Below are positions 1 through 16,472 of a DNA stretch of 26,621 nt, in pieces. The first letter of the stretch is position 1. Every line of letters starts with the position of its first letter. The DNA is from Acutalibacteraceae bacterium (GTDB taxonomy: Bacteria; Bacillota; Clostridia; Oscillospirales; Acutalibacteraceae), in the NCBI GenBank assembly GCA_045597885.1, contig JAZLKY010000275.1, positions 1 to 26,621 of the forward strand. The letters run 5' to 3'. The notes beneath the pieces were generated by a model, which saw nothing but the letters and a program-made list of their open reading frames with translations, was not told where the DNA came from and did not search any database. Position numbers and translations under genes: made by a program.

Positions 1-5
1 ACCTC

Positions 6-56
6 CCGAATAGCCGAAGGGAGCCGAACTTGGTTCGGCTCCCTTCTGCTATTCGG
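6..56 (-). terminator. 24-bp inverted repeat (1 mismatch), probable terminator downstream of the SDR remnant
   Basis: ccgaatagccgaagggagccgaac (6-29), loop ttg, gttcggctcccttctgctattcgg (33-56). It lies 3 nt past the SDR stop at 60-62. Confidence 0.7.
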
Positions 57-59
57 TCA

Positions 60-485
60 TTATTTGATATCGTAGGCGCCGTCCATGATGACGGTTTCAC
101 CGACGATCTGATTTGCTTCTTCCGACAGCAGGTACATGGCAAGCCCGGCGATTTCCTCTACCGTACCGAACCGCCCGGTCGGGATATGGTCGTTGTGCAT
201 GGAGTCCCCCTTGTGCCAGTTGTTCATTTCTGTGGCGATGGGACCGGGGGCAATGCCGTTGATGACGATCCCATAAGGGGCGAACTGCCGTCCCCAGCCC
301 CGTGTCAGACCGACAACACCGCCCTTGGAAGTCGCATACGGACCGTAATACGGTTCCGTTGCTGCTACACTGGCGATATTGAGGATATTTCCCGGAATTT
401 TATTTTCATAAAAATAGCGGACGGCGGTCTGCATGAAGAAATAGGCGGCTTTCAGATTGGTGTGCATGATCGCATCCCATTCCTC
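60..485 (-). pseudogene. 5'-truncated classical SDR (FabG-like) oxidoreductase, C-terminal half only
   Basis: EEWDAIMHTNLK, NIASVA, YATSK (YxxxK), NGIAPGPIAT and GETVIMDG motifs are present. There is no TGxxxGIG or NAG N-terminal part, and the frame closes at a stop at 528-530. Confidence 0.8.
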
Positions 486-677
486 TATAACCGTATTGCC
501 CCGGCAATGGATATGATCAAAAGCCGATTATCCGACCAGGCGCTGACGGTCACTGCACTGGCAGAGGGTTGCGGGATCAGTGTCGCTACCCTTAACCGCC
601 TGTTCCATCAACTGTACGGGATGCCGGTATCCCGCTATCTGATGAGTCGCCGTATGGAAATGGCGAAGGCTCTGCTT
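486..677 (+). pseudogene. Internal fragment of an AraC-family regulator (first HTH only)
   Basis: YNRIAPAMDMIKSRLSDQALTVTALAEGCGISVATLNRLFHQLYGMPVSRYLMSRRMEMAKALL matches the AraC HTH1 pattern. The N-terminal sensor domain and the second HTH (IA..xGF...YF.R.FK) are absent. Confidence 0.75.
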
Positions 678-716
678 TTTTCGGCTATTGTCAGCCGATG
701 TATTGACAGATGGGCA

Positions 717-2981
717 TTATGCTCCGACCGGATCTTTTTTCTTTTTCTTTCTCAGATGGGTGGTGGTGATGATACTGCCGCCTGCCGCCCCGATGATAAG
801 AGCGACCGCCGCAATGATCGCCGCAACGCCGCCGGAGATCGCGCTTCCCGCATAGGAAGCGGATGTTTCCCGTTCGAAGAGGATATAAGTTCCGCCGTAT
901 TTGTCCTCCTTGCCGGTGTAGAGCGGATCAAGCAGATTGATGGCGGCGGTTTCGTTGAACAGGTGAGCAAAGGATGCATTCTCACCAAAGTTTTTGCTCC
1001 CTGTCTTTATCAGCAGATCGCCGGCACAGATGGGACTGCCGGCATCAGTGTCTTTTGTCGTATACAGCACAAGCCAACCGGTCTTGGCATCCGCCTCGTG
1101 GTTGTTCACATCCGCCGCATCGCCGTCAAGTGTTTTGACTGTCTGATAGTAGACATAATCCTCGCCGTAGGGTGTCATGGCTGTTGACATGATGTGGTGG
1201 GGTATGTTTTCCTCAACAGGCTTTTCCTGTGTAAAATAATCCACCAGTGTGTAGATGTCATAGGCAAGGGCGACAACAAGAAGCACAAATGAGGCGACCT
1301 TGATCACGGATGAGAATTTGACCGTTCGCTGTACACTGTTATAATTCTCGGTCGCTCTGTTGAGGCGGTAACGGTACTGCGGGAACATCTCATCCAGCCC
1401 CGCCTCGTTGACCTCACGGGCGAATGCCGGACTGCCGCCATCCCAACGGTTGAGATATTTTTCGTATTCTTCCTCGTACTTCTGTACGGCGGCGTTAAGT
1501 TTCTCGGTTACTTTGGGGAGCTTTTTGAGTGCATTTTTCTTCAGTACCGTCGCAGTGACACCCGTCGCCGCCAGTCCGCAGGTCGATGCCCAGCAGATAA
1601 TCGTCCGCTTGCTCCAGTAGGACAGATCGCCGCCGACGATCCCGCCTAATTTTTCAAGCCAACTGTCATCGGAGAGGGATTCGTGATTGACGGCACTGCT
1701 GGTGAAGGCGACACCGTCATCGAAAACGGTCCTGTCCACACCGTCGAATATGGAAACGGGTTCCAGTGCTTCGGTGAATTCTTCATATTCTGCGATAGCA
1801 TCGGATGTGCCTTCCTCGGCATCTTCTTCGGCGGAGAAAGCACTTTGCAGGATCTCTTTGATGCCGATGAAATCCACCTGCTTTTTCTGACCGTCGCTCA
1901 TGCAGTAGACGAGCGGATACAGATCGGTCTTGTCGATCTGTGACGACGGTTGTTTAAAGAAGGAGAGTAGGGTGCCGGTGCCGTACTTTGAGCTTGCCAG
2001 CAGGGTGTAAAATCCAAAATCCGTCGTGTTGTCAAGTGCTTCCGGAATCTCAGCCAGTTCGTCTGCCTGTGCGACAAGTTCCTTTTGCTCATCGCTCAAG
2101 CCATCGGTGTCGCTCCCGTCGCTTTCGGTGGGATCAAATGCATCGTCTTTCACTTCAAGTTGACCGTTCTTGTCCTCTGCTACTACGTCCTTTTCAACAT
2201 TCAAAAGATAGTTGTAGAAGAAATCCCAATCTTTGTAGAGCGTGTCGGCTACCGTGCCGTACCGGCTCGCCAGATCCTCTTCAAATGCCGCATGGGTGGG
2301 GAAGCTTTTTTCGTACTGATCCAGCACATTGGGGCCGACATTTGACAGGCGGTCTACCAGTGTGGTGTCATCGGGATCACCTGCAAAAGAGAGCGCCCGG
2401 ATCATCGACATCACGATATCATCATTTGCCTGCATCAGTGTGTCGGTCAGTGCACGGATCGCTTCGGGTGAAGAATCAAAATCGAGAAAGTAATCACCCA
2501 TCAGTTTTTCGCTGTCATCGTCCTTGAACAGATTGAGTGCCTGATAGGCGAGGAGAGCGTTTTTGGTTTCGTTATTATAGCCGTTCTGGAATTCTTCGAT
2601 GAATGAACCGATATCCTCGACCACGGCTTCAATATTCTCTTCATAGTCCTTCATGATCTGCTGATAGTCAGAATAACTGAATTTGCCGAGCATATTCATG
2701 GCGGCGATATCCGTGATCGCTTCTTTCCTGTTTTCGGTTTCTTTATAACCAAGATATACACCGGTATCCAGTGTCAGGTTAAGATTGCCGACGACCATCT
2801 TGTATCCGGCGGACGCCAGCTTGCTTTTCGCATCTGCCGGAGTGGCTGCGGCAACAGTGACGATCTCACTGACATACTTTTTGCCATCCGTTGCGGCAAA
2901 TGCCTGCAACGGCAGTGTTGTGACTGCCATGATCAGCGCAAGCGCCAGGGAGAAAGCTTTGACAAAGTGTTTCATTTTCAT
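717..2981 (-). CDS. Exported, membrane-anchored protein (754 aa): signal peptide, beta-prism-like repeats, helical domain with two internal hydrophobic segments, C-terminal TM anchor. Paralogue of the N-terminal half of 3708..8393
   Basis: RBS GGAGGT before ATG. Signal peptide ends LQAFA|A. Repeat NLN..VYLGYKETENRKEAITDI. Hydrophobic segments at about 1542-1604 and 1232-1307. C-terminus GSAISGG-TM-RKKKKK. Confidence 0.85.
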   Translation of the reverse strand: MKMKHFVKAFSLALALIMAVTTLPLQAFAATDGKKYVSEIVTVAAATPADAKSKLASAGYKMVVGNLNLTLDTGVYLGYKETENRKEAITDIAAMNMLGKFSYSDYQQIMKDYEENIEAVVEDIGSFIEEFQNGYNNETKNALLAYQALNLFKDDDSEKLMGDYFLDFDSSPEAIRALTDTLMQANDDIVMSMIRALSFAGDPDDTTLVDRLSNVGPNVLDQYEKSFPTHAAFEEDLASRYGTVADTLYKDWDFFYNYLLNVEKDVVAEDKNGQLEVKDDAFDPTESDGSDTDGLSDEQKELVAQADELAEIPEALDNTTDFGFYTLLASSKYGTGTLLSFFKQPSSQIDKTDLYPLVYCMSDGQKKQVDFIGIKEILQSAFSAEEDAEEGTSDAIAEYEEFTEALEPVSIFDGVDRTVFDDGVAFTSSAVNHESLSDDSWLEKLGGIVGGDLSYWSKRTIICWASTCGLAATGVTATVLKKNALKKLPKVTEKLNAAVQKYEEEYEKYLNRWDGGSPAFAREVNEAGLDEMFPQYRYRLNRATENYNSVQRTVKFSSVIKVASFVLLVVALAYDIYTLVDYFTQEKPVEENIPHHIMSTAMTPYGEDYVYYQTVKTLDGDAADVNNHEADAKTGWLVLYTTKDTDAGSPICAGDLLIKTGSKNFGENASFAHLFNETAAINLLDPLYTGKEDKYGGTYILFERETSASYAGSAISGGVAAIIAAVALIIGAAGGSIITTTHLRKKKKKDPVGA

Positions 2982-3009
2982 GACCTCCGTTTATAAGTTT
3001 ATAAATTGT

Positions 3010-3711
3010 TCAATCAAATCCGTAATGGTATAGCATCCTGCCATCGCCGTACCGGGCATTTTCGATCGCCGTATCCGTGTTCTGCCCGGAAAATACACCG
3101 CCGTACTGGTCATATGCCGGCTTGCTCCTGTCGACAGTGCCTCCTTTACACAGCAAAGCCGCCTGCGGTGTGTGGCAGGTGATCACCGCATCACTGTCGT
3201 AATAGGCAGAAGAAACATAATCGGTGTCGGTGTTGATGCGGTATCCGTTCAGCAAAATATTCTCCACGGTAAAGGCAAGCCGTTCACCGCCGTCCATATT
3301 CAGATGGACCTTGACACTGTCAACGATGCCCGGCACCCATACCGAGAAGTGTGTCATATATTCGTTGTCATTCGGGCGAACGAAGGCGGCTTTCAGCACA
3401 TCAGCATTCAGATTCTGCTTTTTGTTTTTGTTCCACGACAGATCAAAACGGTAGGTCGAAGAATTACCGTAGCCGTTGTTGGCTTTGTATCCGAAATCGA
3501 ACCAAAGCTGATAGACGGCATCGTTATCCATATCATTTGAGTTGCACGGATTATACAGATAGATGTCGATATCGTAACGGTACATTCCGCTTGCCGCTTC
3601 GTTTCCGGTGCTTTGATCGGCTGTTCCGTCGGCGGCATTGGCTGCAAATGTCGTCAGCAACATAGCGAGCAGTAATACTATCGCTGTGACAGATGATTTG
3701 ATCCGGCTCAT
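3010..3711 (-). CDS. Secreted protein (about 233 aa) with a beta-sandwich domain, possibly PLAT/LH2-like
   Basis: Start moved to MSRIKS, an ATGA overlap with the upstream stop at 3708-3710. Signal peptide ends FAANA|A. Beta-rich pattern YRYDIDIY...VYQLWFDF...FVRPND...HFSVWVPGIVDSVKVHLNMDGGERLAFTVENILL. Confidence 0.75.
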   Translation of the reverse strand: MSRIKSSVTAIVLLLAMLLTTFAANAADGTADQSTGNEAASGMYRYDIDIYLYNPCNSNDMDNDAVYQLWFDFGYKANNGYGNSSTYRFDLSWNKNKKQNLNADVLKAAFVRPNDNEYMTHFSVWVPGIVDSVKVHLNMDGGERLAFTVENILLNGYRINTDTDYVSSAYYDSDAVITCHTPQAALLCKGGTVDRSKPAYDQYGGVFSGQNTDTAIENARYGDGRMLYHYGFD

Positions 3712-6700
3712 TTTAACACCAGCTTTCCGTATTTCATCGTGTTCCATGTCACGCCGCTCACGATCCCCGCACCGTCTTTGACACTGTTGTCGAATCGGTG
3801 AGCGAACAGATAGATCCGTGTATCTTTGTCGTGCCCCTCTTCGCTGGCAAAGACACCGTCGTTGAAATCACACCGTCTGCCCGAAGTTGTCATGACATTT
3901 TCCCATACGAGCTTATCTGAATTTTCCGGAACGAGGTCTTTTTCTCCCGCCGCCAGATTCATGACGGGTCGATTGGCGGTCCCGGTGGTATAATACAGAT
4001 ATATTCTTAATCCGTTCGTTCCTTCATTGAATGAAATGGCCTTTGTTCGGTCGCCACTGTATAGGTAGCGGTCACACGCCCGCTTGTATGTTACGCCGTC
4101 TATGTCGATGCTTGGTGCGCCGTCGTGCCCCACGGTGCAGAGCAAATCTCTGACGGCATATTTGGCAGTGCCGTTTTTGTCGGTATATCTGTCATAGCCT
4201 ACAAAAACGTATTTGCCGTTGGCACCTTTGTTCATATCGAGATTAATGAAAGCATTACACCCCATATTCAGCAGGTCGATCATCGCTTCATCACGGGTGT
4301 TGCCGCTGCCGATGTACAGATCACTGATGTAGGTTTTGGCGGTTTCATACTTCGAATGAATATAGTTTGTTTCGCCGGTATATCCTTTCAGTTCACCGGT
4401 TTTCCCTTCTCTGACGACCTCACCGTTATAGATCCTTTGCTGAACATCCTTTTCGGTCGCCGTCAGGGCGGAGGCGCAGTCCTTGACGAGAGGGACGGCA
4501 CTGAAGTCGATCGAGGTGATCGGTTCATTGGGGGCACATCCGACACTTGTGGAATAGTAGAGATAGTAGTCGCCGTTTTTATCATGGATCGGTTCGCTGC
4601 CGGCACGGGTGTACTCTGTCCCGCTCACGGTGATCGTCAGCGTTGCGTCACTTTTGTTCTGCGGTTTAAATTTGATAATGGAACAGATGGCATCCAAAGC
4701 GTTGTCCGTCCGTGTCACGCCGATGTATGCCGCTTCTTTCGGCTTGTTGTCAAATGCACTCTGCACCGAGTCGCTGTATCCGACCGCCAGATTTTTAAGT
4801 ATGACCTCATCGGCGGCACTCTGTATGGCATTGACGATGCATATATCGTCTTTCATATTGTTGTACCGCTCGGTCATTTCTTCTTTTTGGTCATCGTCCA
4901 GCTTCAGAAAACTCTTTTCTTTTCCGACTGTGGCATCAAAGCTCCATGAATAGACCGACAGAGCGGAAATATACTTTTTTTCGTGCGGCTTTTCGTCCTT
5001 GACGAACAGATACTGCGGCTTCTTTGCGCTGAAAGCGATATTATGCGCCGCAGTCCTGTTGGGTGTTTTGGCATCCTGTACGCTGTAAAGCCCCGCCCCG
5101 TTGTATTCCTGTTCTTTTTCCGGGTTGTCTGTGAGCTTGATGTCATCGGGTGTCAGTGGGGGAATGCCGGGGATCATGCCACTGACATAGAGATTTTTCA
5201 GTCTCGGTCTGGAGTCGCTCCATAAATACTGCTCATAGTCCTCGGCGGATTGAACAGGGTACTCAGCGATCCGGGGCAGGATCTCCTGTCGGGAGTCTTC
5301 ATTGATCCCGTTCCATGCATTGGATGTAAGGATACCTCGGTAGAATGAGGTGATTTTCACATCGTCTTCCTGTATCTGCCCGCAGAACTGATAGAACACA
5401 TTGCAGGCGGCAAAGCTTTTTGACAGGGTGACGGTCTTATTGTCTGCTTTCGGCTTTGGAACGGTCACTCTGCCGGATACGATCATCTCATTGAGGGCGA
5501 CAACACTGTCGGACAGTGCCGTATACGATTTGACGGAATAGACCGCCCGGTAGGGGTTGCAGGTGGTCGAATAACCGAGGTAGGTGACGATGTTGTCAAC
5601 CGTCTTTTCGCTGGATGTTTTGCCCTTGCCGATATGCCGGACGATCTCAAATGTCATATCGTAGTCTTCGGCAAAATCGTTCTCCCATACCGTAAACCCG
5701 TTTTCTTTGGCGTATTGCACGATCTCGTTGCCGTCCTTGGCACTGGTGTTTTTGCCGGTAAAGAATGCCAGTCCGCCGATATACTGTTCTCCCGATGTAT
5801 AAGTGACACTCGGATGGAAATAGATATATACATTTTGATCGCTTTTCCAGTTTTGATAGGTGAGGGAATAGGGATGATATTCGCTGTCGCCCGTGGCGTT
5901 GAGGTTATACGCATCACCGCCGCAGAACAGGTTGACAGGTTCAAACCCCTCACGGGCGGACGATTTACTGCTCACGATCTGCAGGTCAGCATAGACGGGC
6001 GTACCGGCGTAGGATGACTTACCGTAATAGATCGACGGGATAAAGGAAGGGATATCCTCTCCCGCCCGGACATAGGTTGTGACACCGTATGCCATCGAAT
6101 CCCCCGTACCGATCCCCTGCGGGACGATGCGGATATCTGTGATGGCTTCAGAGGCAACGGTCGTCGTTTTGTAACCGAGGTAGGTGTACGTGCCGCCCTT
6201 TTGGCTGTAAAATGAGGTCAGATTTTTATCAATCGGGGTGAAGCCCATTTTTTTGAGTTTGTCCTTTGCGGCTGTTTCCGTTTTTTCAACAGCGACATAA
6301 AGGGATTCCAGATACGGTGTGCCGGCAGGCGCATCCGATTGTTCTCCTTCGTTGATTCCGGTCGTTTCACCCGCATAATAGAAAAGATAAATGGCGGGAG
6401 CACTCTTATTTTCGGAGTAGGAATTGAGATCGGCAACCGAACCGGGGCCGAAATACCGTACCGGTCGATAGCCGGTTGGGGTGAGCGTATCTCCCTTGAC
6501 CAGTTTGAATGTGGCGCCTGTCGAATCGACACGGATGGGTTCGCCGGCGGTATCCTGCTTTGAATAATACAGGGCGGCAAATCGCTTGCCCTTGCCTGCG
6601 TTAAGGTCGCACGGAACTCCGTCCGCTCCCCTTACCGCATCGTATCGCATGTAGTGCGATTGGCGATAGTCGTAAACGTGGATCGGAATATCTTCTGCCG

Positions 6701-8393
6701 TATATTCCAGCACATCCTCTTCATCCATGACGCTGTCGATGATCCAGTCGATGAGCATATACGCCAGAACGATGACGGTAAATGCCGTCATTACCCATGT
6801 TCCGATGATCAGTACGACGCCCATATAGCCGAGAATGGTGGCGATCGCCCCCGTCCCTGCGGCAGTCGCCGCATGGGCGCACAACGCCCACATGCCGGTG
6901 GCTTCTGCTGTTGCCCAGCCGTAAAAGCCGAGTCGTGCCATTTGTACGACATTGACGGTGATGTTGGCGAGAACAACGACTGAATCAATCACCGTGGAAC
7001 CGATGGAAAAAGCGGTCATCAGATAATTGAGGTTTTTATCCTTCTGTTTTTCCGCAATCAGGTCGGAATACTCTTCCGCCGAGGCGGTCTCCCGTATTCC
7101 TTGGTAAGTAAGCGCGATTTCACTTGTATAGGGGATGGGATCGGTTCCTACCCAAACCGAGAGCTTTTCAGAGCCGTCCTTGTTGTACTTGGCGATATTG
7201 CTTTTCAGCTCGTCGGTGTACTTTTGGGTTTCGCTGATCTTGGCGTTGTCATTGACCAAAGAGAGCGCCATCTGCGGGATGCCGACGATCCGCATCACAC
7301 CGAACTGCCCTTTGGTGAGTGAGGCGGCAAGGGGATAGATCCTTCTGACATCCTCCATGGACGTATATTCTGCCTGACCGAGCGAAACGATGTAATCCCC
7401 GACTCCCCTTCCGTCCGCCAGAATATAGGTGTTCAGCAACTCATATGCCATCAGATAGAAGGCACTTTTATCCTTGTCCTCCAATTCTTCACAAGCGGTT
7501 ATATTATTGATGACTTCATCGGGGATCTCGTAATCTTCGGTGTTTTCCTCATCCTTATCTTTGAGCGCATCATACCCGTTTTTTTCAACGAACGCCTGGG
7601 CTGTGCCTACATTTTCGGCAAAGTCACGAAGCGGTTGACGCAGGTCCTTGGCGATCTTCTCATACTCACGGTCAAGCTGGCAGTCAAGATCCTCTGCGGT
7701 GATCTGCCGATGGACCGGGCTATTGACAAGGCGTTGCGCCCAGTTGTCTTCCGTACAGTCGGTGACACCCGCTGCCATGGTGTTGATCACCGTGAGCATG
7801 ATGCCGGTATTGGCTTGACAGAACAACTTTTTGATGAAGTCCTCGCTACAGTCATCACCTGCCAGATAATCCCCAAGAGTCACGTTGTTTTTTTCGGGGA
7901 TGTACAGCAGGTCCAGTATTTCTTTCGCTTCTATGGCGGCAGGGCTGTTGTTTTGGAGATTGTTTGCATATTCGTTGAACGATACCATCAGCGCAGACGT
8001 TATTTTTGAGACCTGCTCCATTTCCTTTTCAACGATGTACGAATAATTTTTCGTTTCGTAGCCGGTGTTCATTTCCAGCACCGACAGATCGGTAACGGCT
8101 TCATATTGATTCGTAGTGGTTTTATATCCGAGGATCACGGCATTGGCATCGTTTCCTTCATTGAGATCGCTGTCTACGGGTATATACCCACCGTCTTTAC
8201 ATTTTTTGATCGCTTCGGCTTTCGTTGGGGCGGAAAAAGTACAAACGGATTCGATATAAAGCTCCTGCGCCGCCGCCTGCGTTGTGTTTTCTGCCGTCGT
8301 TCCTAAAGCGGCAGAGGCGGGGTTGATAAGGAGGGCTGCTGTCAAAAGGTAGGTCAGCACCGTCATGGCGACAGATTTCATCTTACCGCTCAT
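3708..8393 (-). CDS. Large exported protein (1561 aa): signal peptide, helical domain, roughly 95-aa hydrophobic Gly/Ala-rich segment, multiple beta-prism-like repeats, no C-terminal anchor
   Basis: Long open frame overlapping the upstream stop by 11 nt. Signal peptide ends PASA|A. Repeats DLNEG..ILGYK..AVTDL, DLNAG..ALYY..GEPI, TYLGYKTTTVASEAITDI, DMNKGANGKYVFVGY and FNEG..IYLYY..RPV. Hydrophobic stretch at about 6740-7025. Confidence 0.9.
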   Translation of the reverse strand: MSGKMKSVAMTVLTYLLTAALLINPASAALGTTAENTTQAAAQELYIESVCTFSAPTKAEAIKKCKDGGYIPVDSDLNEGNDANAVILGYKTTTNQYEAVTDLSVLEMNTGYETKNYSYIVEKEMEQVSKITSALMVSFNEYANNLQNNSPAAIEAKEILDLLYIPEKNNVTLGDYLAGDDCSEDFIKKLFCQANTGIMLTVINTMAAGVTDCTEDNWAQRLVNSPVHRQITAEDLDCQLDREYEKIAKDLRQPLRDFAENVGTAQAFVEKNGYDALKDKDEENTEDYEIPDEVINNITACEELEDKDKSAFYLMAYELLNTYILADGRGVGDYIVSLGQAEYTSMEDVRRIYPLAASLTKGQFGVMRIVGIPQMALSLVNDNAKISETQKYTDELKSNIAKYNKDGSEKLSVWVGTDPIPYTSEIALTYQGIRETASAEEYSDLIAEKQKDKNLNYLMTAFSIGSTVIDSVVVLANITVNVVQMARLGFYGWATAEATGMWALCAHAATAAGTGAIATILGYMGVVLIIGTWVMTAFTVIVLAYMLIDWIIDSVMDEEDVLEYTAEDIPIHVYDYRQSHYMRYDAVRGADGVPCDLNAGKGKRFAALYYSKQDTAGEPIRVDSTGATFKLVKGDTLTPTGYRPVRYFGPGSVADLNSYSENKSAPAIYLFYYAGETTGINEGEQSDAPAGTPYLESLYVAVEKTETAAKDKLKKMGFTPIDKNLTSFYSQKGGTYTYLGYKTTTVASEAITDIRIVPQGIGTGDSMAYGVTTYVRAGEDIPSFIPSIYYGKSSYAGTPVYADLQIVSSKSSAREGFEPVNLFCGGDAYNLNATGDSEYHPYSLTYQNWKSDQNVYIYFHPSVTYTSGEQYIGGLAFFTGKNTSAKDGNEIVQYAKENGFTVWENDFAEDYDMTFEIVRHIGKGKTSSEKTVDNIVTYLGYSTTCNPYRAVYSVKSYTALSDSVVALNEMIVSGRVTVPKPKADNKTVTLSKSFAACNVFYQFCGQIQEDDVKITSFYRGILTSNAWNGINEDSRQEILPRIAEYPVQSAEDYEQYLWSDSRPRLKNLYVSGMIPGIPPLTPDDIKLTDNPEKEQEYNGAGLYSVQDAKTPNRTAAHNIAFSAKKPQYLFVKDEKPHEKKYISALSVYSWSFDATVGKEKSFLKLDDDQKEEMTERYNNMKDDICIVNAIQSAADEVILKNLAVGYSDSVQSAFDNKPKEAAYIGVTRTDNALDAICSIIKFKPQNKSDATLTITVSGTEYTRAGSEPIHDKNGDYYLYYSTSVGCAPNEPITSIDFSAVPLVKDCASALTATEKDVQQRIYNGEVVREGKTGELKGYTGETNYIHSKYETAKTYISDLYIGSGNTRDEAMIDLLNMGCNAFINLDMNKGANGKYVFVGYDRYTDKNGTAKYAVRDLLCTVGHDGAPSIDIDGVTYKRACDRYLYSGDRTKAISFNEGTNGLRIYLYYTTGTANRPVMNLAAGEKDLVPENSDKLVWENVMTTSGRRCDFNDGVFASEEGHDKDTRIYLFAHRFDNSVKDGAGIVSGVTWNTMKYGKLVLK

Positions 8394-10521
8394 CGTTTAC
8401 AGCCGCCTCCTTTTTTCTGCGCTTGTTTATGACAAAGAAAACGATCCCCGCCGCCAGCATCACGGCGATGCCGGAAAAGATCAGTATCGGGTTTCCGCTT
8501 CCGATGGCGGAGGTGATCAGTTGCAGCCGTTCGGTTTTCGCTCCGTCAGCCGTGAAGGCAAATGTTTTTGAAGAATCGTCCTGCCAAAAATATCTCTTCT
8601 GATACTCTGAGATGTTCTCAGAAACCGTGTGCTCGGAATCGCCTGTCCTCACCCATATTTCCGAACCGGCATCAAGACCGCCGCAAAAGATTTTTGCCTC
8701 CGTCAGCCCGAAATCGTCAAGATACAGGTCGTCCCGGATATTCTGCGGTGAAAAGTTGTCCCGGATGAGCAGGCATCCCTGCACACTGACATCGTACAGT
8801 TCATCGACATAAACGCCGCTTCCGTGACCGGCAGAGGTGTTGCGGGTGATGCTGGCATCCGAAAGGCTGACCGAATTGCCGCATACAGTTATTGCCCCGC
8901 CGTTTTTACCCGAAGTGTTGTACTGATAACTTCCGGAAAGGCGGGTGCCTTTGCTTGAATTACAATATACTGCTCCGCCGCCGCCATCTGCCCGGTTTGA
9001 CCGAAAGTCGCATCTGTCAAAGGTAGCATAGGCGCCGCTCTCGATATATACTGCTCCGCCGTCGTCCTTACTCTTATTGTTGCTGAACAGACAGCCGGAC
9101 GCCAGAAACCTTCCGTCATTCACATATACAGCACCGCCGTTATCCTCGGAATAGTTTCCCTCAAATATACAGTTGTCAGCAGTGATCACACAATCCTCGT
9201 GATCTTCATATATAGCACCGCCGTGACAGTTATCGGTGCTGTCGCAGGTCATGTTGCAGTAGAAGCCGACATTTTTCAGTGTCACCCTAACGCCGCTTTC
9301 CGTCACACGGATCGCTCCGCCGTGGTCGTTAGTCACACAGTTGACGACCGAGCCGTTTTCCATGGTGAGTGATGCCCCTTTTTTGAGGTGAAAACAGCCT
9401 CCGACGCCGTCACCTGCTCCGCCGGTTATAACGCCGCCGGAGATCCCCGATGAATAGTTCTTTCGTTTTGGAGACGAATCAATTATTTTGAGTGACGAGT
9501 TTTCATCCAAATAAAAGATATATCCGTCCGACGTCATTCTGCCTGCCTTGTTCCGGTTCACCGTATAGCCATTGAGATCGAGGGTAAAGGAGGCATTTTT
9601 TGCCAGTTTTATCGGCTTTGTTAAATTGATGTCGGAGAAGAGCTCTATCACCGGCTTTCCGGTGGTGTCGGAACAGACAGCAGTAAACGCACTGTCGGCG
9701 TTTTGATAATCCTTTATCGTTCCTCCGGTCTGTACGACCGCCTTGACACCTGAGGCAGGGGAGTATTGTCCGTACTCATAGAATGTGATCGTTTTGTAGG
9801 TGATGTTTTCGATTCGCTTTGCTGCCGTTTTATCACCGCCCAATTGCATCTGCCGAATCCCCGCCAATGCGCACGGGTGGCTTTTGACCAGTTCCCGGTT
9901 GACATCATGATAGGACAGGCTGACTGACAGCCTGCCTGCTTCATATGCTACCGTCAGAACACATTCTTCGTTTGCTCCGATCTTGGCATTTTTGGCGGTG
10001 AGGACATCCTCGGCGGGAGCAGCTGATGCGTGGTTGATTTTTTCTCCGCCTACATATACATCTCCGTTTTCCGCTACGGATAAAAGGACAAGCGGATCAT
10101 TCAGAACAAGGCTCTTCCCGAACGTTTCGGCTGACAAGTACAGAAATGCTTTCCCGTTGTCGGCATCGCCGTCATCGGATGCGGTGCTGTATGCGATCTC
10201 CATCCGAAAATCCTTCAGTTGGTTCAGAGGGTTATTTTTATACAGAGAAAGGATACCCGCCGGTACGGTAAGACCGTCACTGTCTTTTGTTGCTTCTCCT
10301 GTTTCGGTCAGTTTCCACTGGGATGTCCCCGAAACAAGCACTTCTTTGGCTCTGGAGGCAGTGTATACCGTCTCTGTATTGCTCCTGAAATCGTGGACCT
10401 CTGAGCGGTTAAATACATTTATTGCCGACACGTTCGATACAAAGATTACTGCACAGCCTGCTATACACACTGCCAGCGACAGCAACCGAAGCCGATTGGC
10501 ACAGCGATTTGCATTTTTCAT
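8383..10521 (-). CDS. Surface adhesin-like protein (712 aa): N-terminal beta-sandwich, right-handed beta-helix with Pmp-type GGA[IV]/FxxN repeats, C-terminal TM anchor
   Basis: TLDLNGYT cap. Repeats HGGAIRV, HGGAIYE, FEGNYSEDNGGAVYV, FSNNKSKDDGGAVYI, FRSNRADGGGGAVYC and NGGAITV. Ends TSAIGSG-TM-KRRKKE. ATGA overlap with the upstream gene. Confidence 0.85.
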   Translation of the reverse strand: MKNANRCANRLRLLSLAVCIAGCAVIFVSNVSAINVFNRSEVHDFRSNTETVYTASRAKEVLVSGTSQWKLTETGEATKDSDGLTVPAGILSLYKNNPLNQLKDFRMEIAYSTASDDGDADNGKAFLYLSAETFGKSLVLNDPLVLLSVAENGDVYVGGEKINHASAAPAEDVLTAKNAKIGANEECVLTVAYEAGRLSVSLSYHDVNRELVKSHPCALAGIRQMQLGGDKTAAKRIENITYKTITFYEYGQYSPASGVKAVVQTGGTIKDYQNADSAFTAVCSDTTGKPVIELFSDINLTKPIKLAKNASFTLDLNGYTVNRNKAGRMTSDGYIFYLDENSSLKIIDSSPKRKNYSSGISGGVITGGAGDGVGGCFHLKKGASLTMENGSVVNCVTNDHGGAIRVTESGVRVTLKNVGFYCNMTCDSTDNCHGGAIYEDHEDCVITADNCIFEGNYSEDNGGAVYVNDGRFLASGCLFSNNKSKDDGGAVYIESGAYATFDRCDFRSNRADGGGGAVYCNSSKGTRLSGSYQYNTSGKNGGAITVCGNSVSLSDASITRNTSAGHGSGVYVDELYDVSVQGCLLIRDNFSPQNIRDDLYLDDFGLTEAKIFCGGLDAGSEIWVRTGDSEHTVSENISEYQKRYFWQDDSSKTFAFTADGAKTERLQLITSAIGSGNPILIFSGIAVMLAAGIVFFVINKRRKKEAAVNDER

Positions 10522-11921
10522 CTGTTTTGGCTCACCTCGCTATCTTTTCTCTTGCGTCTGTTTGAGGCTGTGATGCAAACACCTGTTACCGTCATTGCCG
10601 CCACCAGGAAAGCGGCAATGGCGATAAGACTGCCCCCGCCGATCGCCGAACCGGGGATCTCTTCGGTTTTGCGGCTGCCGTCAGCAGTCTTTTCGTCTTC
10701 CTCTGCCTGCTTATTGATGGCGTTGTCCTCGATATCCCGTGACTGCCCGTCAATGGGATAGGCGTTTTCCGCCATACCGTTTTTGCTCTTCACTTCTTTT
10801 GCTACTGCATCGGCAACGGCAGTCAGTCCGTTTTTGCCTAAAACGATATACAGTCCGGATCCGGAGACGGCTTTTTCGTTTTCAAAACAGTTGACAGGTA
10901 ATTGCGTATATTCTTCTTTTGACTGTGTCAAATCGCCGTAGGCTTCTTCGTTGAATACTTTGGAGGCGCCGGCAGTGGTTTTGCCGCCGAAATACGACCT
11001 TGCCCAGTCGCCGAGCGTAAAATCTTCGCCCATCACAGCACCAAGTGTTATGTCGGTTATCGGATTCCCGATCCTTTCCGATCGGGTAAAAAACAATTCC
11101 CTCGCTTTTCCGTCACAGATCATTTTGCCTGCCGATGTGAAAGGAACGCCGCAGAGAGAGGCAGTGTCGGACACCGCCACATATCTTACCGCCTGTGCCT
11201 TATCTGCTGTTCTGTTATAGCAGAGATAAGTGGCGGTATTACCCGATGTACAGATGGGGGCATCAATGAAATAATCGCATCCGGTCGAAGTCAGTTTGCT
11301 CAAAAGACGGTCGCCGTTTGCCACCTCGACTGTCTTTATTTCACTGATATACGGAAGACATACCGTACGGCGGATCATAAAGAAATACAGTTCGTATCCG
11401 TCTATTCCCGCCTCAAAATCGGCGGCACTGCCGTCTGCCGTGCGTACCGGCACGGAACCGTCGCTGAAGAAGTCCGGAAGGGCGGCATCGTTTTTCGGAT
11501 TGCGGGAAAATGACAGCAGTGCCACGATACCGTCCCCTGCCTTTTTGTCCTTTGTGCAGTAAAGATAAAGGGGAAAACCGGCAGTTCCTGCATTAAGATC
11601 CTTTTCGGACACCAGGGTGTATGTGACCGAACCTATCGAAAGAGAGGGCCTCTTTTCCGGGGATACAACAAGACCGGTGATGGCATCGTCTCCGGTTTTA
11701 TAGCCCATATAAATCATTTCTCCCGATCCCGGCGCATGATTGAGATTCTGATAGATCACCGTGTATCCTTTTTTCTCCAATTCGGTGATCGCTTCTTTTC
11801 CCACGGCGATCTTTATTTCCGACAGGCATGAGCCGGAAGCCGCAAAAGTCGAAAAGGGCGGAAATAACATAATAACGGCAAGCACAGACAGCAGTATCCG
11901 ACGCCAATCATTTCTTTTCAA
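10518..11921 (-). CDS. Exported, TM-anchored protein (about 467 aa) with two triplets of beta-prism-like (MABP-like) repeats; first gene of the operon
   Basis: TTG start (MKRNDWRR) after RBS GAGGTGG. Signal peptide ends STFA|A. Repeats NLN..IYMGYK..AITGL, DLNAG..LYLYCTK..GIVAL, DFEAG..LYFF, PYISEI..TYLCYNR and ELFFTR..NPITDI. Ends GSAIGGG-TM-RRKRK. Confidence 0.85.
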   Translation of the reverse strand: MKRNDWRRILLSVLAVIMLFPPFSTFAASGSCLSEIKIAVGKEAITELEKKGYTVIYQNLNHAPGSGEMIYMGYKTGDDAITGLVVSPEKRPSLSIGSVTYTLVSEKDLNAGTAGFPLYLYCTKDKKAGDGIVALLSFSRNPKNDAALPDFFSDGSVPVRTADGSAADFEAGIDGYELYFFMIRRTVCLPYISEIKTVEVANGDRLLSKLTSTGCDYFIDAPICTSGNTATYLCYNRTADKAQAVRYVAVSDTASLCGVPFTSAGKMICDGKARELFFTRSERIGNPITDITLGAVMGEDFTLGDWARSYFGGKTTAGASKVFNEEAYGDLTQSKEEYTQLPVNCFENEKAVSGSGLYIVLGKNGLTAVADAVAKEVKSKNGMAENAYPIDGQSRDIEDNAINKQAEEDEKTADGSRKTEEIPGSAIGGGSLIAIAAFLVAAMTVTGVCITASNRRKRKDSEVSQNR

Positions 11922-11998
11922 AACAGACCACCTCACTATGTTACTGATATGCCGCCCTTCGGCTGCGCTGAAAATTTCTTAAAATGGGGATATACATA

Positions 11999-12027
11999 TT
12001 GAAAAACAAAAAGGAACATATTATAAT
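11999..12027 (+). promoter_or_regulatory. SigA-type promoter for the 7TM-prsW pair
   Basis: TTGAAA (11999-12004), 17-nt spacer, TATAAT (12022-12027). Confidence 0.75.
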
Positions 12028-12099
12028 TTTATTGTGAAGAACCAACCCAAATCCCACCGGAAAGGAGGCTTTCGCCCGTCGAAAGCCAAGGCGGTCACG

Positions 12100-12768
12100 A
12101 TGAAAACATATCTTATATCAAACATACACATCCTTATTTGCTGTGCTGTCGGGCTTGCTTACGGTATCGCACGCATCAACAGCAAAAATAAGCCTCCGAT
12201 GTATCTGCTTTTTTCTCTTTTTGCCCTTGTCAGTGCATTTCTGTCGAGAGTATTCTATACCTTGTCCATCGTCTTTCACGGGGGGATCCCCGATACGTTC
12301 AACATCGGCTTTCTCGGCTATGCGGCAACATTCCTGTTTTTTCTCTTGGCGAATATCGGTCAGATGGACTGGCTCGTAGATGACAGGAAATCATTGAGAC
12401 CGATATACCGCATCATTCCTGCCATTGTGCCGACGGCAGAGCTTTTTGCCGCAGTGATCGGATTGTTTCTCAAAAACGTAACATTTTCCGTCCGCCTCTC
12501 GTTCCTTGTCATCACCGTTGTTGCGGGCTTCGCCGGGTATTTCAATATAAAGCACATCATTGTTCCCGATATTGAATTCGGTATTGTCAAAGCGGTCAGG
12601 GGTAACAATCTGATCGAATTTGCTATCGGTATCCTCTCTCTTGCGGAGATCGGATTCAGTGTCTACGGGCTCAACGAGCTTATTCTCTATGTTCAGATAG
12701 TGCTCGGCGTCCTTTACATTGCCGTCATTCCCGTTCTCAGTATGGAGGTGAAGAAATGGACACGATGA
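12100..12768 (+). CDS. Integral membrane protein (about 222 aa) with about 7 hydrophobic helices, function unknown
   Basis: ATG at 12100, downstream of the promoter. Seven hydrophobic stretches by eye. Its stop overlaps the start of the next gene. Confidence 0.75.
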   Translation: MKTYLISNIHILICCAVGLAYGIARINSKNKPPMYLLFSLFALVSAFLSRVFYTLSIVFHGGIPDTFNIGFLGYAATFLFFLLANIGQMDWLVDDRKSLRPIYRIIPAIVPTAELFAAVIGLFLKNVTFSVRLSFLVITVVAGFAGYFNIKHIIVPDIEFGIVKAVRGNNLIEFAIGILSLAEIGFSVYGLNELILYVQIVLGVLYIAVIPVLSMEVKKWTR

Positions 12769-13454
12769 ACTATATCCTTTTTATCTGTACCGCCACGCCG
12801 ATGCTTCTGATGCTCATTCCCATAGAAAAGGGATCGAGAAAAGTGATATTCTTTATGCTCATCGGGATGTTTTGCTGTCTTTTCATCAGCGAGGTCAACG
12901 GCTTTTTTCTCAACATATCCGATTTTGATCTTTTGTATTTCACCATCAATATCACGCCTGTCACGGAAGAGATCATTAAGACACTGCCGGTGCTTCTGTT
13001 CGCCTTAATCTGCTCCGATAGCAGGAAAGACATCATCACCGCTTCGTTCTCCGTCGGTGTCGGATTCGCCATGCTTGAAAATCTCATGATATTGACACAG
13101 AACTTTCAGTCGGTCGATCTTTGGTTTGCGCTCATCCGAGGATTCTGTTCGGGGCTGATGCACAGCATCTGCACAATAGCCATCGGTTTCTTCATCGTCT
13201 TCATCAAAAAGCGGCACAAGATATTTGTGGCGGGCAGTATCACTGCGCTGAATCTGGCGATCGTCTATCATTCGGTCTATAATCTTCTTGTCCAGGCGTC
13301 TTCCCGGATCGCAAGGATTTCCGGGCTTGGTCTCCCACTGATCACCTATACCATAGTCAATCTGACACTGATCGTGCGGATCAGGCAGACTGTCAATAAA
13401 CCCCACAACCGTCAAAAACAGTTACTAAAGGATCAAATCGACCGGGGGAAATGA
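12756..13454 (+). CDS. prsW: PrsW-family glutamic-type intramembrane protease
   Basis: PVTEEIIK, GVGFAMLEN, GLMH and YHSVYN follow the PrsW motif order (EExxK, FxxxEN, H, HxxxN). RBS GGAGGTG. The last 24 residues or so are encoded inside the repeat element. Confidence 0.85.
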   Translation: MDTMNYILFICTATPMLLMLIPIEKGSRKVIFFMLIGMFCCLFISEVNGFFLNISDFDLLYFTINITPVTEEIIKTLPVLLFALICSDSRKDIITASFSVGVGFAMLENLMILTQNFQSVDLWFALIRGFCSGLMHSICTIAIGFFIVFIKKRHKIFVAGSITALNLAIVYHSVYNLLVQASSRIARISGLGLPLITYTIVNLTLIVRIRQTVNKPHNRQKQLLKDQIDRGK

Positions 13455-13591
13455 TCGTCTGTTTTTTTGAACAACTCAAAAAGTTAATATAATCAACCGT
13501 TTTGACTTCCTGCGCCGATCACCCCCTACCGTACCTTTGTACGCCGACGGGGTCGATCGGCTTGTCTTGCGGGGCTTCTTGACAGTCTGCC
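13384..13591. mobile_element. Small non-autonomous inverted-repeat element (MITE or internally deleted IS)
   Basis: Terminal inverted repeats ggcagactgtcaataaaccccaca (13384-13407) and tgcggggcttcttgacagtctgcc (13568-13591) match at 21/24. Internal hairpin 13514-13561. No transposase ORF. Confidence 0.65.
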
Positions 13592-13672
13592 AGCGTGTCA
13601 ATAAACCCCACAACCGTCAAAAACAGTTACTAAAGGATCAAATCGACCGGGGGAAATGATCGTCTGTTTTTT
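13391..13672 (+). repeat. 77-bp exact direct repeat, two copies (13391-13467 and 13596-13672)
   Basis: tgtcaataaaccccacaaccgtcaaaaacagttactaaaggatcaaatcgaccgggggaaatgatcgtctgtttttt occurs twice, offset by 205 bp. Confidence 0.95.
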
Positions 13673-14429
13673 GATTTCCCCAAATGCGCTGTCGCCATTC
13701 GCCGGGCGTACAGCCGTTATGTTTGACAAAGGCTTTGTAAAAATTGACATAATTGCCGAATCCGCATTCTACAGCGATATCAGACAGGGAACGGGAGGAA
13801 TTTTCCATTAGGACCTTGGCGGTATTCAGCCGCCATTCGGTCATATAGGCGCAGGGAGACACGCCGACCTCTTTCCGGAACAGTTGGATGAGCCGATTGC
13901 TGCTGTAGCCGCAGTGGCTTGCCATTTCGCCAAGAGAAAGCGGGCGGGACAGATCCTGCCGTGCCAGCGCCGTTACCTCTTCGATCGCCCTCCTGCCGGG
14001 GGTGGACGGCTCTCTTGGAAGAAGTTGAACCAGTATAGAGAGAAAGACGGCGTTTTTTTCCAAAATGGCACTGCCGGGATCCTGCTCGGTTTCTTCCAGT
14101 CTTTCCCAAAGCTGCCGCATTTCATTGATGCGATATTTCCCCCGTATCGGGATGCCGCCCTCGCCATAGGCACCGATAAAGTGGATGTAATAATACCGGG
14201 CGGTTTCACTGGGGATAACGCCCCGTTGTCTGAGTCCCCGCCGTTGGATATAGTATTCTCCGGCGGAACATTTCTGCTCTGTTCCGTCTTCTTCAAAGTA
14301 CAGTGTTCCCGCCGTCATCAGGATCAGCACATCCTCGGCGCAGATGCGGTCGACATGCTTCTCTCCCAGCAGGAAAGACTTCGTTCCGTTGTGACAGAAC
14401 CGGGGCAAAACATCGGTTTGCAATCCCAT
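13638..14429 (-). CDS. AraC-family transcriptional regulator
   Basis: RBS GAGGTGG. Cupin-like N-terminus. Both HTHs are present (LSLGEMASHCGYSSNRLIQLFRKEVG; LSDIAVECGFGNYVNFYKAFVKHNGCTP). Confidence 0.9.
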   Translation of the reverse strand: MGLQTDVLPRFCHNGTKSFLLGEKHVDRICAEDVLILMTAGTLYFEEDGTEQKCSAGEYYIQRRGLRQRGVIPSETARYYYIHFIGAYGEGGIPIRGKYRINEMRQLWERLEETEQDPGSAILEKNAVFLSILVQLLPREPSTPGRRAIEEVTALARQDLSRPLSLGEMASHCGYSSNRLIQLFRKEVGVSPCAYMTEWRLNTAKVLMENSSRSLSDIAVECGFGNYVNFYKAFVKHNGCTPGEWRQRIWGNQKTDDHFPRSI

Positions 14430-14446
14430 GATACCACCTCAGTGTC

Positions 14447-14524
14447 AGTATAGCACGAATTATGATATTTGCAATAGAAATGTTGATATTTTTCATTGTT
14501 CGGATGAGGAAAAGGTGGTATGAT
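14447..14524. promoter_or_regulatory. Divergent promoters with two TGATATTT direct repeats 21 bp apart (putative AraC half-sites)
   Basis: Minus strand: TTGCAA (14469-74), 16 nt, TGcTATACT (-10 at 14447-52). Plus strand: TTGTTC (14496-501), 17 nt, TGgTATGAT (-10 at 14519-24). tgatattt at 14463-70 and 14484-91. Confidence 0.55.
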
Positions 14525-14624
14525 CCATATAGGTAAGGCGACCTCTGAAAAAGATCAAGCAAAATGGATGCAAGGGGATTTTTCAGAGGTATCTACATAT
14601 CAGAAATGTATGGAGGGAACCGTT

Positions 14625-16460
14625 ATGATGAAAGAGCTTGATCCTCGTTTTTTCCATCCCGCCGGATGGATGAGAAAACAACTGGAAATACAGGCAGACG
14701 GGTTGTCGGGACATCTTGACAAGATGTGGCAGGATATCCGGGACAGTGCCTGGATCGGCGGTAATTGTGAAGGGTGGGAGCGGGTACCGTATTGGCTTGA
14801 CGGCTTTATCCCATTGGCATGGTTGCTCGACGATACAGATAAAAAGGGGCGTGCCAAGCGGTATGTGGATGCCATCCTGCAACGGCAAAAGCCGGACGGC
14901 TGGATATGCCCCTGCACCGATGAAGAGCGGGCGGGATATGATGTGTGGGCGGCATTTCTCATCTGCAAAGTGCTGACACTGTATCATCAGTTCACCGCAG
15001 ATGAAGCGGCGCTTAAAGGCGCAAAGCGGGCGCTCCTGTGTTTGCTCCGCATGATGGAAGACGGAGAGATCCGTCTGCGTGACTGGGGAAAATTCCGGTG
15101 GTTCGAATGTTTGATCCCGTTGCAGTATCTCTATGACCGTCAGCCGGAAGACTGGATCCTCCGACTGGCGCATCTGTTGCGGGAGCAGGGAGCGGATTAC
15201 GGTGACTATACCGAGGAATGGAAACACCGTGCCACCGGATGGACCTATCAAAACCATATCGTCAACCTGTGCATGATGTTCAAGGCAGATGCCCTTTATC
15301 GCCATTTGACCGGGGAGGATATTCCCGACCGTGCCGCCGATTTTTGGCACATCCTCGAAGAATACAACGGTACGGCGGTGGGGACATTCACCGGAGATGA
15401 ATGCCTGGCGGGAATCGGTGCGGATCACGGGACGGAACTCTGCTCGGTGGTCGAGCTGATGTATACCTGTGAATGGATGCTGATGCTCACCGGTGATCCG
15501 GTCTGGGGCGACCGGTTGGAGAAGGCGGCATTCAACGCCTTCCCTGCCACCGTCAGCGAGAATATGTGGACACACCAGTACGATCAGCAGGTCAATCAGA
15601 TCGCCTGTCAACGGTTGGGCGAAAAGGTGGTCTTCACGACCAACGGACCGGAATCGCATTTGTTCGGATTGGAACCGCATTACGGCTGTTGTACTGCTAA
15701 TTTTAATCAGGGATTCCCGAAACTGGCGATGCATTCTTTCCTTCGTTCGTCGGACGGACTCGTCAGTGCTGTGCTGATCCCCGGCGCAGTGAAGGCGGAT
15801 ATTGACGGTACGGCGGTGACGGTGGAGCTGAAGACCGAATACCCGTTCCGCAACACCCTGCAGTATACGGTCACGGCAGAACAGCCGGTCATGTTTGATC
15901 TGTCGGTGCGGGTCCCCGGCTGGGCAGAGGGTGTGACGGTCGACGGTGTGACAACTGACGCGTGCGGCTTTTTGCATTTGCGGCGGGAATGGAGAGGTAC
16001 TGCCACTGTGACGGTGGAACTAAGTGCCACGCCGCATCTGCAGCCCCGTCCCAATGCGATGGCAGTAGCGGAATACGGTGCGCTGGTATTCTCTCTGCCC
16101 CTGACGGTGTCATGGAACAAGCTGGAATATGAGCGGGATGGCGTAGAACGTAAATTCCCGTATTGCGATTATGAACTGACCACGGATGACGAGTGGCGGT
16201 ACGGCTTTGCGGACGGGAAGCTGACGGTGCGGGAACTGCCTGTTGACAAATCTGTTGCGCCGTTTTCCGATACACAGCCCCGTCTGGTATTGGAAATGGC
16301 ACTGAACCGGGTGGCATGGAACGAGAACCCCGACTGCCCGACTGTGGCGTCGGCTCTGCCGGTTTCTGCCGAACCGATCGGTGAGCCGGAGCAAAAAGTG
16401 CTGTTCCCCTACGGTTGCGCCAAGCTACGGATGACCGAAATGCCGATCAAATACAAATAA
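14625..16460 (+). CDS. GH127/GH146-type (DUF1680) glycoside hydrolase, beta-L-arabinofuranosidase-like
   Basis: Start moved to MMKELD after RBS GGAGGG. Motifs GWERVPYWLDG, ELCSVVE, RLEKAAFNA, YGCCTANFNQGFPKL and TEYPF. Confidence 0.85.
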   Translation: MMKELDPRFFHPAGWMRKQLEIQADGLSGHLDKMWQDIRDSAWIGGNCEGWERVPYWLDGFIPLAWLLDDTDKKGRAKRYVDAILQRQKPDGWICPCTDEERAGYDVWAAFLICKVLTLYHQFTADEAALKGAKRALLCLLRMMEDGEIRLRDWGKFRWFECLIPLQYLYDRQPEDWILRLAHLLREQGADYGDYTEEWKHRATGWTYQNHIVNLCMMFKADALYRHLTGEDIPDRAADFWHILEEYNGTAVGTFTGDECLAGIGADHGTELCSVVELMYTCEWMLMLTGDPVWGDRLEKAAFNAFPATVSENMWTHQYDQQVNQIACQRLGEKVVFTTNGPESHLFGLEPHYGCCTANFNQGFPKLAMHSFLRSSDGLVSAVLIPGAVKADIDGTAVTVELKTEYPFRNTLQYTVTAEQPVMFDLSVRVPGWAEGVTVDGVTTDACGFLHLRREWRGTATVTVELSATPHLQPRPNAMAVAEYGALVFSLPLTVSWNKLEYERDGVERKFPYCDYELTTDDEWRYGFADGKLTVRELPVDKSVAPFSDTQPRLVLEMALNRVAWNENPDCPTVASALPVSAEPIGEPEQKVLFPYGCAKLRMTEMPIKYK

Positions 16461-16472
16461 GGGGGAAAACCG

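Follow-up and report, generated by a model that had tools for sequence, protein, structure and literature searches.

Three exported proteins encoded on the minus strand of contig JAZLKY010000275.1 of an Acutalibacteraceae bacterium (assembly GCA_045597885.1; the whole stretch of 26,621 nucleotides is hereafter the window) end in a common tail that comprises a short Ser/Gly signature, a transmembrane (TM) helix and a basic cluster. These tails are a previously unmodelled tripartite C-terminal domain on Sec-exported surface proteins of gut and rumen Clostridia. It is a conserved, modular domain confined to the extreme C-terminus, and its occurrence in genomes is linked to that of a two-gene membrane module consisting of a 7-helix (7TM) protein and a PrsW-family protease with intact catalytic motifs. 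The comparative data point to an undescribed, sortase-independent handling of surface proteins, in which the tail is a well-supported candidate signal. It is probably a new tripartite sorting or cleavage signal with the PrsW-family glutamic protease as its cognate enzyme, cleavage being the step that we infer. The three tails, read from the translated minus strand, are as follows.

720–863, minus strand: tail of P0001, with GSAISGG at 828–848 (G712–G718), a Gly-rich TM helix and KKKKK
8386–8529, minus strand: tail of P0002, with TSAIGSG at 8494–8514 (T670–G676), a TM helix and KRRKK
10521–10667, minus strand: tail of P0003, with GSAIGGG at 10632–10652 (G429–G435), a TM helix and RRKRK

The original prediction had named these heptads as directly preceding a TM helix and a basic tail, and minus-strand translation bore out the exact coordinates. 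Each heptad is followed by 0–2 residues, ~22 hydrophobic residues and a K/R cluster that lies 5–10 residues from the stop. A hidden Markov model of the tail (HMM; version A1) scored P0001 at 40.7–46.7 bits over model positions 1–43, and the tail HMM gave 50.7–56.6 bits for the P0002 tail and 43–48 bits for that of P0003. The motif codons of the three genes differ synonymously, as had also been claimed, and the tail-coding DNA is only ~50% identical between genes; gene conversion therefore does not explain the likeness of the tails. The pattern [GTSA]SAI[GSA][GSA]G occurs four times in the six-frame open reading frames (ORFs) of the whole 1.84-Mb, 440-contig assembly. Three of these occurrences are the window tails, and the fourth is followed by neither a hydrophobic helix nor a basic cluster.

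The motif is kept by orthologues in all three families. Orthologues of P0003 (~42% identity) all retain AYGSAI[GS][GS]GSLIAIA followed by the helix and K/R residues, after a linker of variable sequence. Relatives of P0002 retain L[IV]TSA[IV]GxGN, with degenerate forms such as ASIFSNGS and ASLFGEGA in the more distant ones, and relatives of P0001, among them as many as eight tandem paralogues within other genomes, retain [AG]GS[AIV][IF][ST]xG. The P0001 and P0002 families each keep their own version of the motif down to 26–30% identity. In loci L005 and L006, expansion of the P0001-type gene has produced at least 6–8 tandem paralogues, each encoding a signal peptide and a tail.

Across proteins, the general signature reads [A/G]-S-[A/V]-[I/F]-[S/G]-x-G-[S/N], followed by ~22 hydrophobic residues and then K/R. 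Its best-kept dipeptide is [A/G]-S, it contains no Cys, and its fixed residues are Ser and Gly, the only two to reach ≥90% in a 60-tail alignment. Among 81 non-redundant tails, aligned on an anchoring pattern that somewhat restricts the columns of the information peaks, Ser occupies position 0 in 74 (3.4 bits) and Gly position +5 in 62 (2.7 bits), with I/F at position +2 (2.4 bits) and S/G at position +3 (2.0 bits). The helix columns carry ~1.1 bits in hydrophobic composition only, and the start of the K/R cluster is fixed at +28/+29. Since the information peaks in the motif and is low in the helix, the tail reads as a recognition signature followed by a generic helix and not as a packing helix.

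This pattern bears on the alternative first offered beside the sorting signal, a TM oligomerisation motif. The motif and helix could form an assembly element that, with no proteolysis involved, docks the tailed proteins onto one another or onto the 7-helix protein, as the conserved glycine-zipper-like helix (G-x3-G-x3-G) of the P0001 family would allow; in the window, the operon of the three tailed proteins also encodes P0004, which lacks the tail but contains TM segments internally. However, the helix sequence is free to vary both in most of the 304 clusters described below and in the families of P0002 and P0003, in which the motif outside it is fixed; single adhesin-like proteins of unrelated kinds, encoded beside the 7TM–PrsW pair, bear the tail too, and the catalytic residues of PrsW are strictly kept. 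An assembly element without proteolysis is thus less favoured, and we regard it as quite unlikely.

Modularity of the tail is evident from its carriers. A search of 1.84 billion cluster representatives with the tail HMM returned 304 clusters at E≤1e-3, nearly all of whose matches end at the protein C-terminus. The match set is consistent, confined to the extreme C-terminus of exported surface proteins of many architectures. Domains in the 61 long hits include LRR_5 (10), Chlam_PMP (8) and ricin lectin (7 and 5), besides Beta_helix, Glug, Flg_new (Listeria-Bacteroides repeat), TPS, PLAT and others. BspA-type leucine-rich repeat (LRR), PMP beta-helix, ricin-lectin, GLUG, beta-prism and Cys-rich proteins, which are unrelated in architecture, carry the same tail. 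True tails score 30–57 bits with a match starting at model position 6 or earlier, whereas generic TM+KKK or LPXTG tails reach at most 32 bits with matches from position 10 or later; an LPXTG protein in L068 scores 2.6 bits. No Pfam or NCBIfam CTERM or sorting model exceeded its cut-off on P0001–P0005 or on 61 + 20 further tail proteins. Three traits of generic tripartite C-terminal sorting domains are present here, namely the layout following a signal peptide, the multiple architectures and the link to a membrane protease. The commonest tail variant is GSVLSEGNLWII...KKKKKPALA; it (P0177–P0316) also retains a cytoplasmic extension after the Lys run, KKKKKPALA-x-GENTDEE, and the conservation of this extension hints at recognition from the cytoplasmic side too.

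The membrane module lies beside the operon, from which it is divergently oriented, and the PrsW gene overlaps the end of the 7TM gene.

12100–12768, plus strand: 7-helix membrane protein with no Pfam or NCBIfam family; its AlphaFold2 (AF2) model is a 7-helix bundle (pLDDT 80)
12756–13454, plus strand: PrsW-family glutamic-type intramembrane protease, the candidate cognate enzyme (PF13367, 61.5 bits; gathering threshold 23.5)

The PrsW motifs EExxK, FxxxEN, H and HxxxN are invariant among seven homologues. The positive-inside rule, applied to the K/R residues of the loops, places these motifs in the outer-leaflet half of each helix, the level at which the signature would sit on the substrate. 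For the 7TM partner, hits in the ESM Atlas are confined to hypothetical Bacillota clusters, and those of Foldseek in the PDB to non-significant rhodopsin/GPCR-like 7TM matches (E≥0.09). The protein resembles the sensor-type 7TM modules that are fused to GGDEF/EAL proteins (TM-score 0.69), and its invariant polar residues (D94, Y-x-N-x-K-H, N170 and W220) lie at the predicted cytoplasmic face.

The association of tail and pair recurs across genomes and with different cargo. In L001 and L002 the orthologous operon has this pair at its side, and so do the very diverged versions of the operon in L004 and L006. Tail genes adjoin the pair in the window and in L001, L002, L004, L006, L008, L041, L042, L045, L046 and L047, as well as in L050, L051, L052, L064, L068 and L069. 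Paralogous pairs stand beside quite different tailed proteins, such as a 294-aa Cys-rich protein (L008), a 1039-aa LRR protein (L042) and a 437-aa GLUG protein (L051), and others of 297, 465, 468, 483, 489, 1245 and 1975 aa. The tail gene overlaps the PrsW stop in L068, and four tailed proteins follow the pair in a row in L069. Two of the top three hits of the global tail search could be judged by their flanks, and both lie directly after a 7TM–PrsW pair.

The linkage also holds when loci are chosen without regard to the tail. We fetched 80 loci by the 7TM gene alone from named species genomes of gut and rumen origin (Acutalibacteraceae, Ruminococcus, Eubacterium, Lachnospiraceae and Oscillospiraceae; 0.99 Mb in total). 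PrsW lies directly downstream of the 7TM gene in 77 of the 80, and a tail ORF is present in 43. This share grows with the available sequence, from 1/16 in loci shorter than 6 kb to 15/25 at 6–12 kb, 10/19 at 12–18 kb and 17/20 at 18 kb or more, and further sub-threshold tails occur in L100, L141 and L149. The genome-wide frequency in a sample of 401 genomes of the order leads one to expect ~0.06 tails in 0.99 Mb by chance, which makes the enrichment ~700-fold. In that sample, motif-bearing tails occur in 13 genomes and the 7TM protein in 13, both being found together in 10 and one without the other in 3 + 3; the three tail-only genomes are 73–87% complete. Of the 26 genomes in the family to which the window belongs, 5 have the tail, and it is these five that have the 7TM. 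The tail thus co-occurs with, and is usually encoded beside, a PrsW-family protease and its 7TM partner. Orthologue conservation, the HMM match set and this PrsW neighbourhood support the earlier proposal that the tail is a candidate CTERM signal for sorting or cleavage, with the neighbouring PrsW as its possible partner.

The motif is short and made of common small residues, so a chance or low-complexity resemblance among Gly/Ser/Ala-rich segments preceding TM helices had to be considered. Such a resemblance is very improbable, being already contradicted by the three sole C-terminal instances in the genome, by the conservation of the motif in orthologues, by HMM scores that stand cleanly apart from those of generic tails and by the enrichment beside the pair.

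Extending the sampling to the class added five more genomes with the 7TM protein, with a clear adjacent tail only in G749; the others hold divergent pairs with different neighbours. Near-identical cassette loci (L084, L086, L087, L088 and L090) also turned up in bins named Phascolarctobacterium, Collinsella, Escherichia coli, Bacteroidaceae and Hallerella, and these oddly named bins most likely reflect binning errors rather than transfer.

Two precedents shape the mechanism that we propose. PrsW of B. subtilis cuts RsiW extracytoplasmically between Ala168 and Ser169 (PMC8767453), and CTERM signals that contain Cys have related CPBP glutamic proteases as their sorting enzymes, either by prediction or by demonstration (10.1101/2023.06.07.544157; PMC11980579). 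Drawing on these and on the outer-leaflet location of the catalytic motifs, we propose that PrsW, with the 7-helix protein, would cut near the signature. After Sec export, the tail would keep the protein membrane-bound, its signature lying at the outer face. There PrsW, whose catalytic residues are predicted to lie in the outer leaflet, would recognise the signature and cleave there or close by; a possible site is the [A/G]|S bond, by analogy with RsiW. Such cutting would mature or release the surface protein. The 7-helix partner may serve as a substrate adaptor, perhaps, more speculatively, by binding the basic cytoplasmic end. Because glutamic proteases are hydrolases, release, trimming or maturation would be likelier than sortase-like covalent anchoring. 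More tentatively, one may envisage a second, sortase-independent surface-protein pathway in gut and rumen Clostridia, in which the role of ‘sortase’ for a Ser/Gly-signature tag on hundreds of adhesin-like proteins would fall to a PrsW protease with an obligatory 7-helix cofactor, and the [A/G]|S cut at the outer face would decide between display, release and assembly, here of a beta-prism/beta-helix surface apparatus.

Several points weigh against a dedicated sorting enzyme. The case for processing is comparative throughout, and a hydrolase fits release or trimming better than covalent anchoring. The Fisher value for co-occurrence of tail and 7TM in the 401 genomes, 3e-15, is inflated by the kinship of the compared genomes and overstates the significance, and the thresholds for a true tail (model start ≤6–7, score ≥18–30 bits) were set after the score distributions had been viewed. 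No tail protein is in view beside the pairs of L007, L010, L055, L056, L061, L062 and L063. Of these, L010 is the second 7TM–PrsW pair of the window's own genome (G000; contig C259, 5240–6534, minus strand), and no tail protein is encoded on this 7.3-kb contig. In addition, distant pairs lie directly after an extracytoplasmic function (ECF) sigma gene and a small gene for a single-pass anti-sigma-like protein (L065, G369:C75; L066, G241:C1), and the classical role of PrsW is regulatory. The pairs without a tail in view, together with the sigma-adjacent ones, indicate that the module is not exclusively tied to the tail, and the ECF sigma/anti-sigma neighbourhood may be the ancestral regulatory context of the pair.

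Those sigma-adjacent pairs and the classical PrsW role (PMC8767453) would suit a signalling module performing regulated, RsiW-like proteolysis, linked to surface loci for their regulation, with the tails not being substrates. Yet neither the window nor most of the tail-linked loci contain a sigma or anti-sigma gene, the regulators beside the pair are not conserved (AraC, HTH_3 or histidine kinase/response regulator), and the association tracks the tail across unrelated cargo proteins; we therefore hold a purely signalling role to be distinctly improbable. More weight attaches to the possibility that the tail is a permanent, lineage-specific membrane anchor, with the PrsW module acting as a conditional sheddase or quality-control protease and not as a constitutive sorting enzyme, although we consider this unlikely as well. 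The tail has all the hallmarks of a stable type-I anchor, and PrsW, as a glutamic protease, can hydrolyse but not transfer; the 7-helix partner recalls the sensor-type modules mentioned above, and two-component genes lie beside the pair in L061 and L069. A plain anchor, however, would make superfluous both the nearly invariant Ser and Gly outside the helix and the dedicated, translationally coupled protease found in most loci. Recognition of the tail as a signal by the PrsW module remains the reading that we prefer.

Three of the loci just named have further neighbours of their own. On C259, a conserved 203-aa membrane protein is encoded upstream of the second pair, and the same arrangement is found in a congener (L007). 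The pair in L066 also precedes a gene for a 1955-aa SLH-type surface protein. In L063 (G572:C4), a 541-aa lipoprotein encoded after the pair (5988–7610, minus strand) has a terminal beta-prism-like strand (…GGPYIYLWEKR) and no C-terminal tail; it would be N-terminally anchored instead.

The closest known systems include those that use glutamic intramembrane proteases. The myxosortase systems (CPBP/Rce1-type MrtX, MrtC and MrtP) with MYXO-CTERM, and likewise the JDVT-, Synerg- and CGP-CTERM signals, place a signal of the same tripartite layout on a wide range of unrelated exported proteins, and both its co-occurrence and its gene neighbourhood link it to a glutamic intramembrane protease of the same superfamily. 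MYXO-type signals, however, have an invariant lipid-modified Cys and a PF02517 CPBP enzyme, whereas the present system has no Cys, a PF13367 PrsW with a 7-helix partner, and monoderm Clostridia as hosts. Membership of MYXO-CTERM or another Cys-type signal was rejected, given that the signature lacks Cys, the adjacent enzyme belongs to PF13367 and no NCBIfam CTERM model matches.

The PrsW/RsiW system of B. subtilis has the same family (PF13367) and the same catalytic motifs, and its Ala|Ser cut resembles the [A/G]-S of the signature. RsiW is a single regulatory type-II protein cut ~40 residues from its end, whereas here the putative substrates are many type-I surface proteins with a shared juxtamembrane signature. 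The PrsW of the window differs from the B. subtilis enzyme in having a dedicated 7TM partner, and it scores 34.8 bits against the NF033739 equivalog, well below the cut-off of 225. PrsW domains fused to polymorphic toxins have been predicted to process or release exported proteins (Zhang et al. 2012, PMC3482391). Those domains are fused in cis at the N-terminus and are autoproteolytic, whereas the present PrsW is encoded by a separate gene, and its target in trans would be a C-terminal tag common to many proteins.

With sortase A/B and LPXTG, the tail shares its position, its tripartite layout and its kinds of cargo (LRR, beta-helix and lectin adhesins). Sortase is a Cys transpeptidase, whereas the enzyme here is a membrane-embedded glutamic hydrolase. 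That the signal is not of the LPxTG type, as originally stated, is confirmed: no LPXTG-like motif is present, and the tails score 11–14 bits against cut-offs of 15.9 (TIGR01167) and 20 (PF00746), with only the helix and basic part aligning. Both kinds of system meet in L068, where the PrsW cassette with its tailed protein stands beside a sortase cassette with LPXTG substrates; immediately downstream of the 7TM–PrsW–tailed-protein cassette, 9719–17015 holds a pilus cluster with a signal peptidase, a SpaA-type pilin and two sortases. The window genome itself encodes two sortases (C347 and C268). On its contigs C145, C353, C380, C396 and C415 are encoded proteins ending in xTGD, a TM segment and a K-rich tail, e.g. 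DNTGDASNVWLW…, which are probably variant sortase signals.

The GG_III-CTERM model NF041738, which spans 28 positions of a C-terminal TM region, aligns, though weakly, with the Gly-rich helix of certain P0001-type tails. Membership was rejected, as the best scores, 17.2 and 13.9 bits against a cut-off of 22, belong to distant P0001-like proteins and cover the helix and not the signature. The model matches neither P0001–P0003 nor the common GSVLSEGN-type tails.

C-terminal sorting signals and their cognate enzymes (sortase, exosortase, archaeosortase, rhombosortase and myxosortase) explain how microbial surfaces are decorated, and each new pairing of signal and enzyme has opened the annotation of thousands of proteins. 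The tail marks a large and varied adhesin-like set in abundant, poorly studied gut and rumen Clostridia that current Pfam and NCBIfam models miss. If PrsW and the 7TM protein do process it, PrsW proteases would gain a role beyond anti-sigma cleavage, the sorting paradigm of glutamic proteases would extend to a Cys-free signal and to monoderm bacteria, and a simple test system would be at hand, with one tag, two genes and point mutants. A literature search on PrsW with sorting signals and on GGIII found no description of this system. The papers retrieved describe PrsW only as the site-1 protease of RsiW (PMC8767453) and as a cis-fused toxin-releasing domain (PMC3482391), and Haft's work on sorting signals concerns CPBP enzymes and Cys signals, not PrsW (10.1101/2023.06.07.544157).

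The tailed proteins of the window belong to a five-gene operon on the minus strand, in the order P0003, P0002, P0004, P0005 and P0001.

10518–11936, minus strand: P0003, 472 aa, exported beta-prism (MABP-like) protein with an acidic linker and tail
8383–10521, minus strand: P0002, 712 aa, exported PMP-repeat beta-helix protein with tail
3708–8393, minus strand: P0004, 1561 aa, operon member with an internal hydrophobic (TM) segment and no tail
3010–3747, minus strand: P0005, 245 aa, exported operon member without tail
717–2981, minus strand: P0001, 754 aa, exported, with a signal peptide, an internal hydrophobic region and tail

P0002 contains Chlam_PMP repeats (47.7 bits in the Pfam scan). 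In the AF2 model of P0003, the beta-rich ectodomain matches the pore-former Mpf2Ba1 over its beta-prism domain (8b6v, E 2.2e-4), with a weak resemblance to an MABP domain (3tow); a disordered acidic linker spans residues 379–438, and the helix starts at residue 437, immediately after the motif. The tail is the sole significant BLASTP segment between P0002 and P0003, so that the claim of different upstream domains stands for the beta-helix of P0002 versus the beta-prism of P0003; it does not extend fully to P0001 and P0003, which have a weak N-terminal repeat in common. Orthologues of P0004 in L001, L002, L004 and L006 likewise lack a tail. At the left edge of the window, an open frame entering from outside (3–1187, plus strand) overlaps the 3' end of P0001 on the opposite strand and encodes only the first half of an AraC-type helix-turn-helix (HTH_18 positions 1–41 of 80); it may be a truncated or frameshifted regulator.

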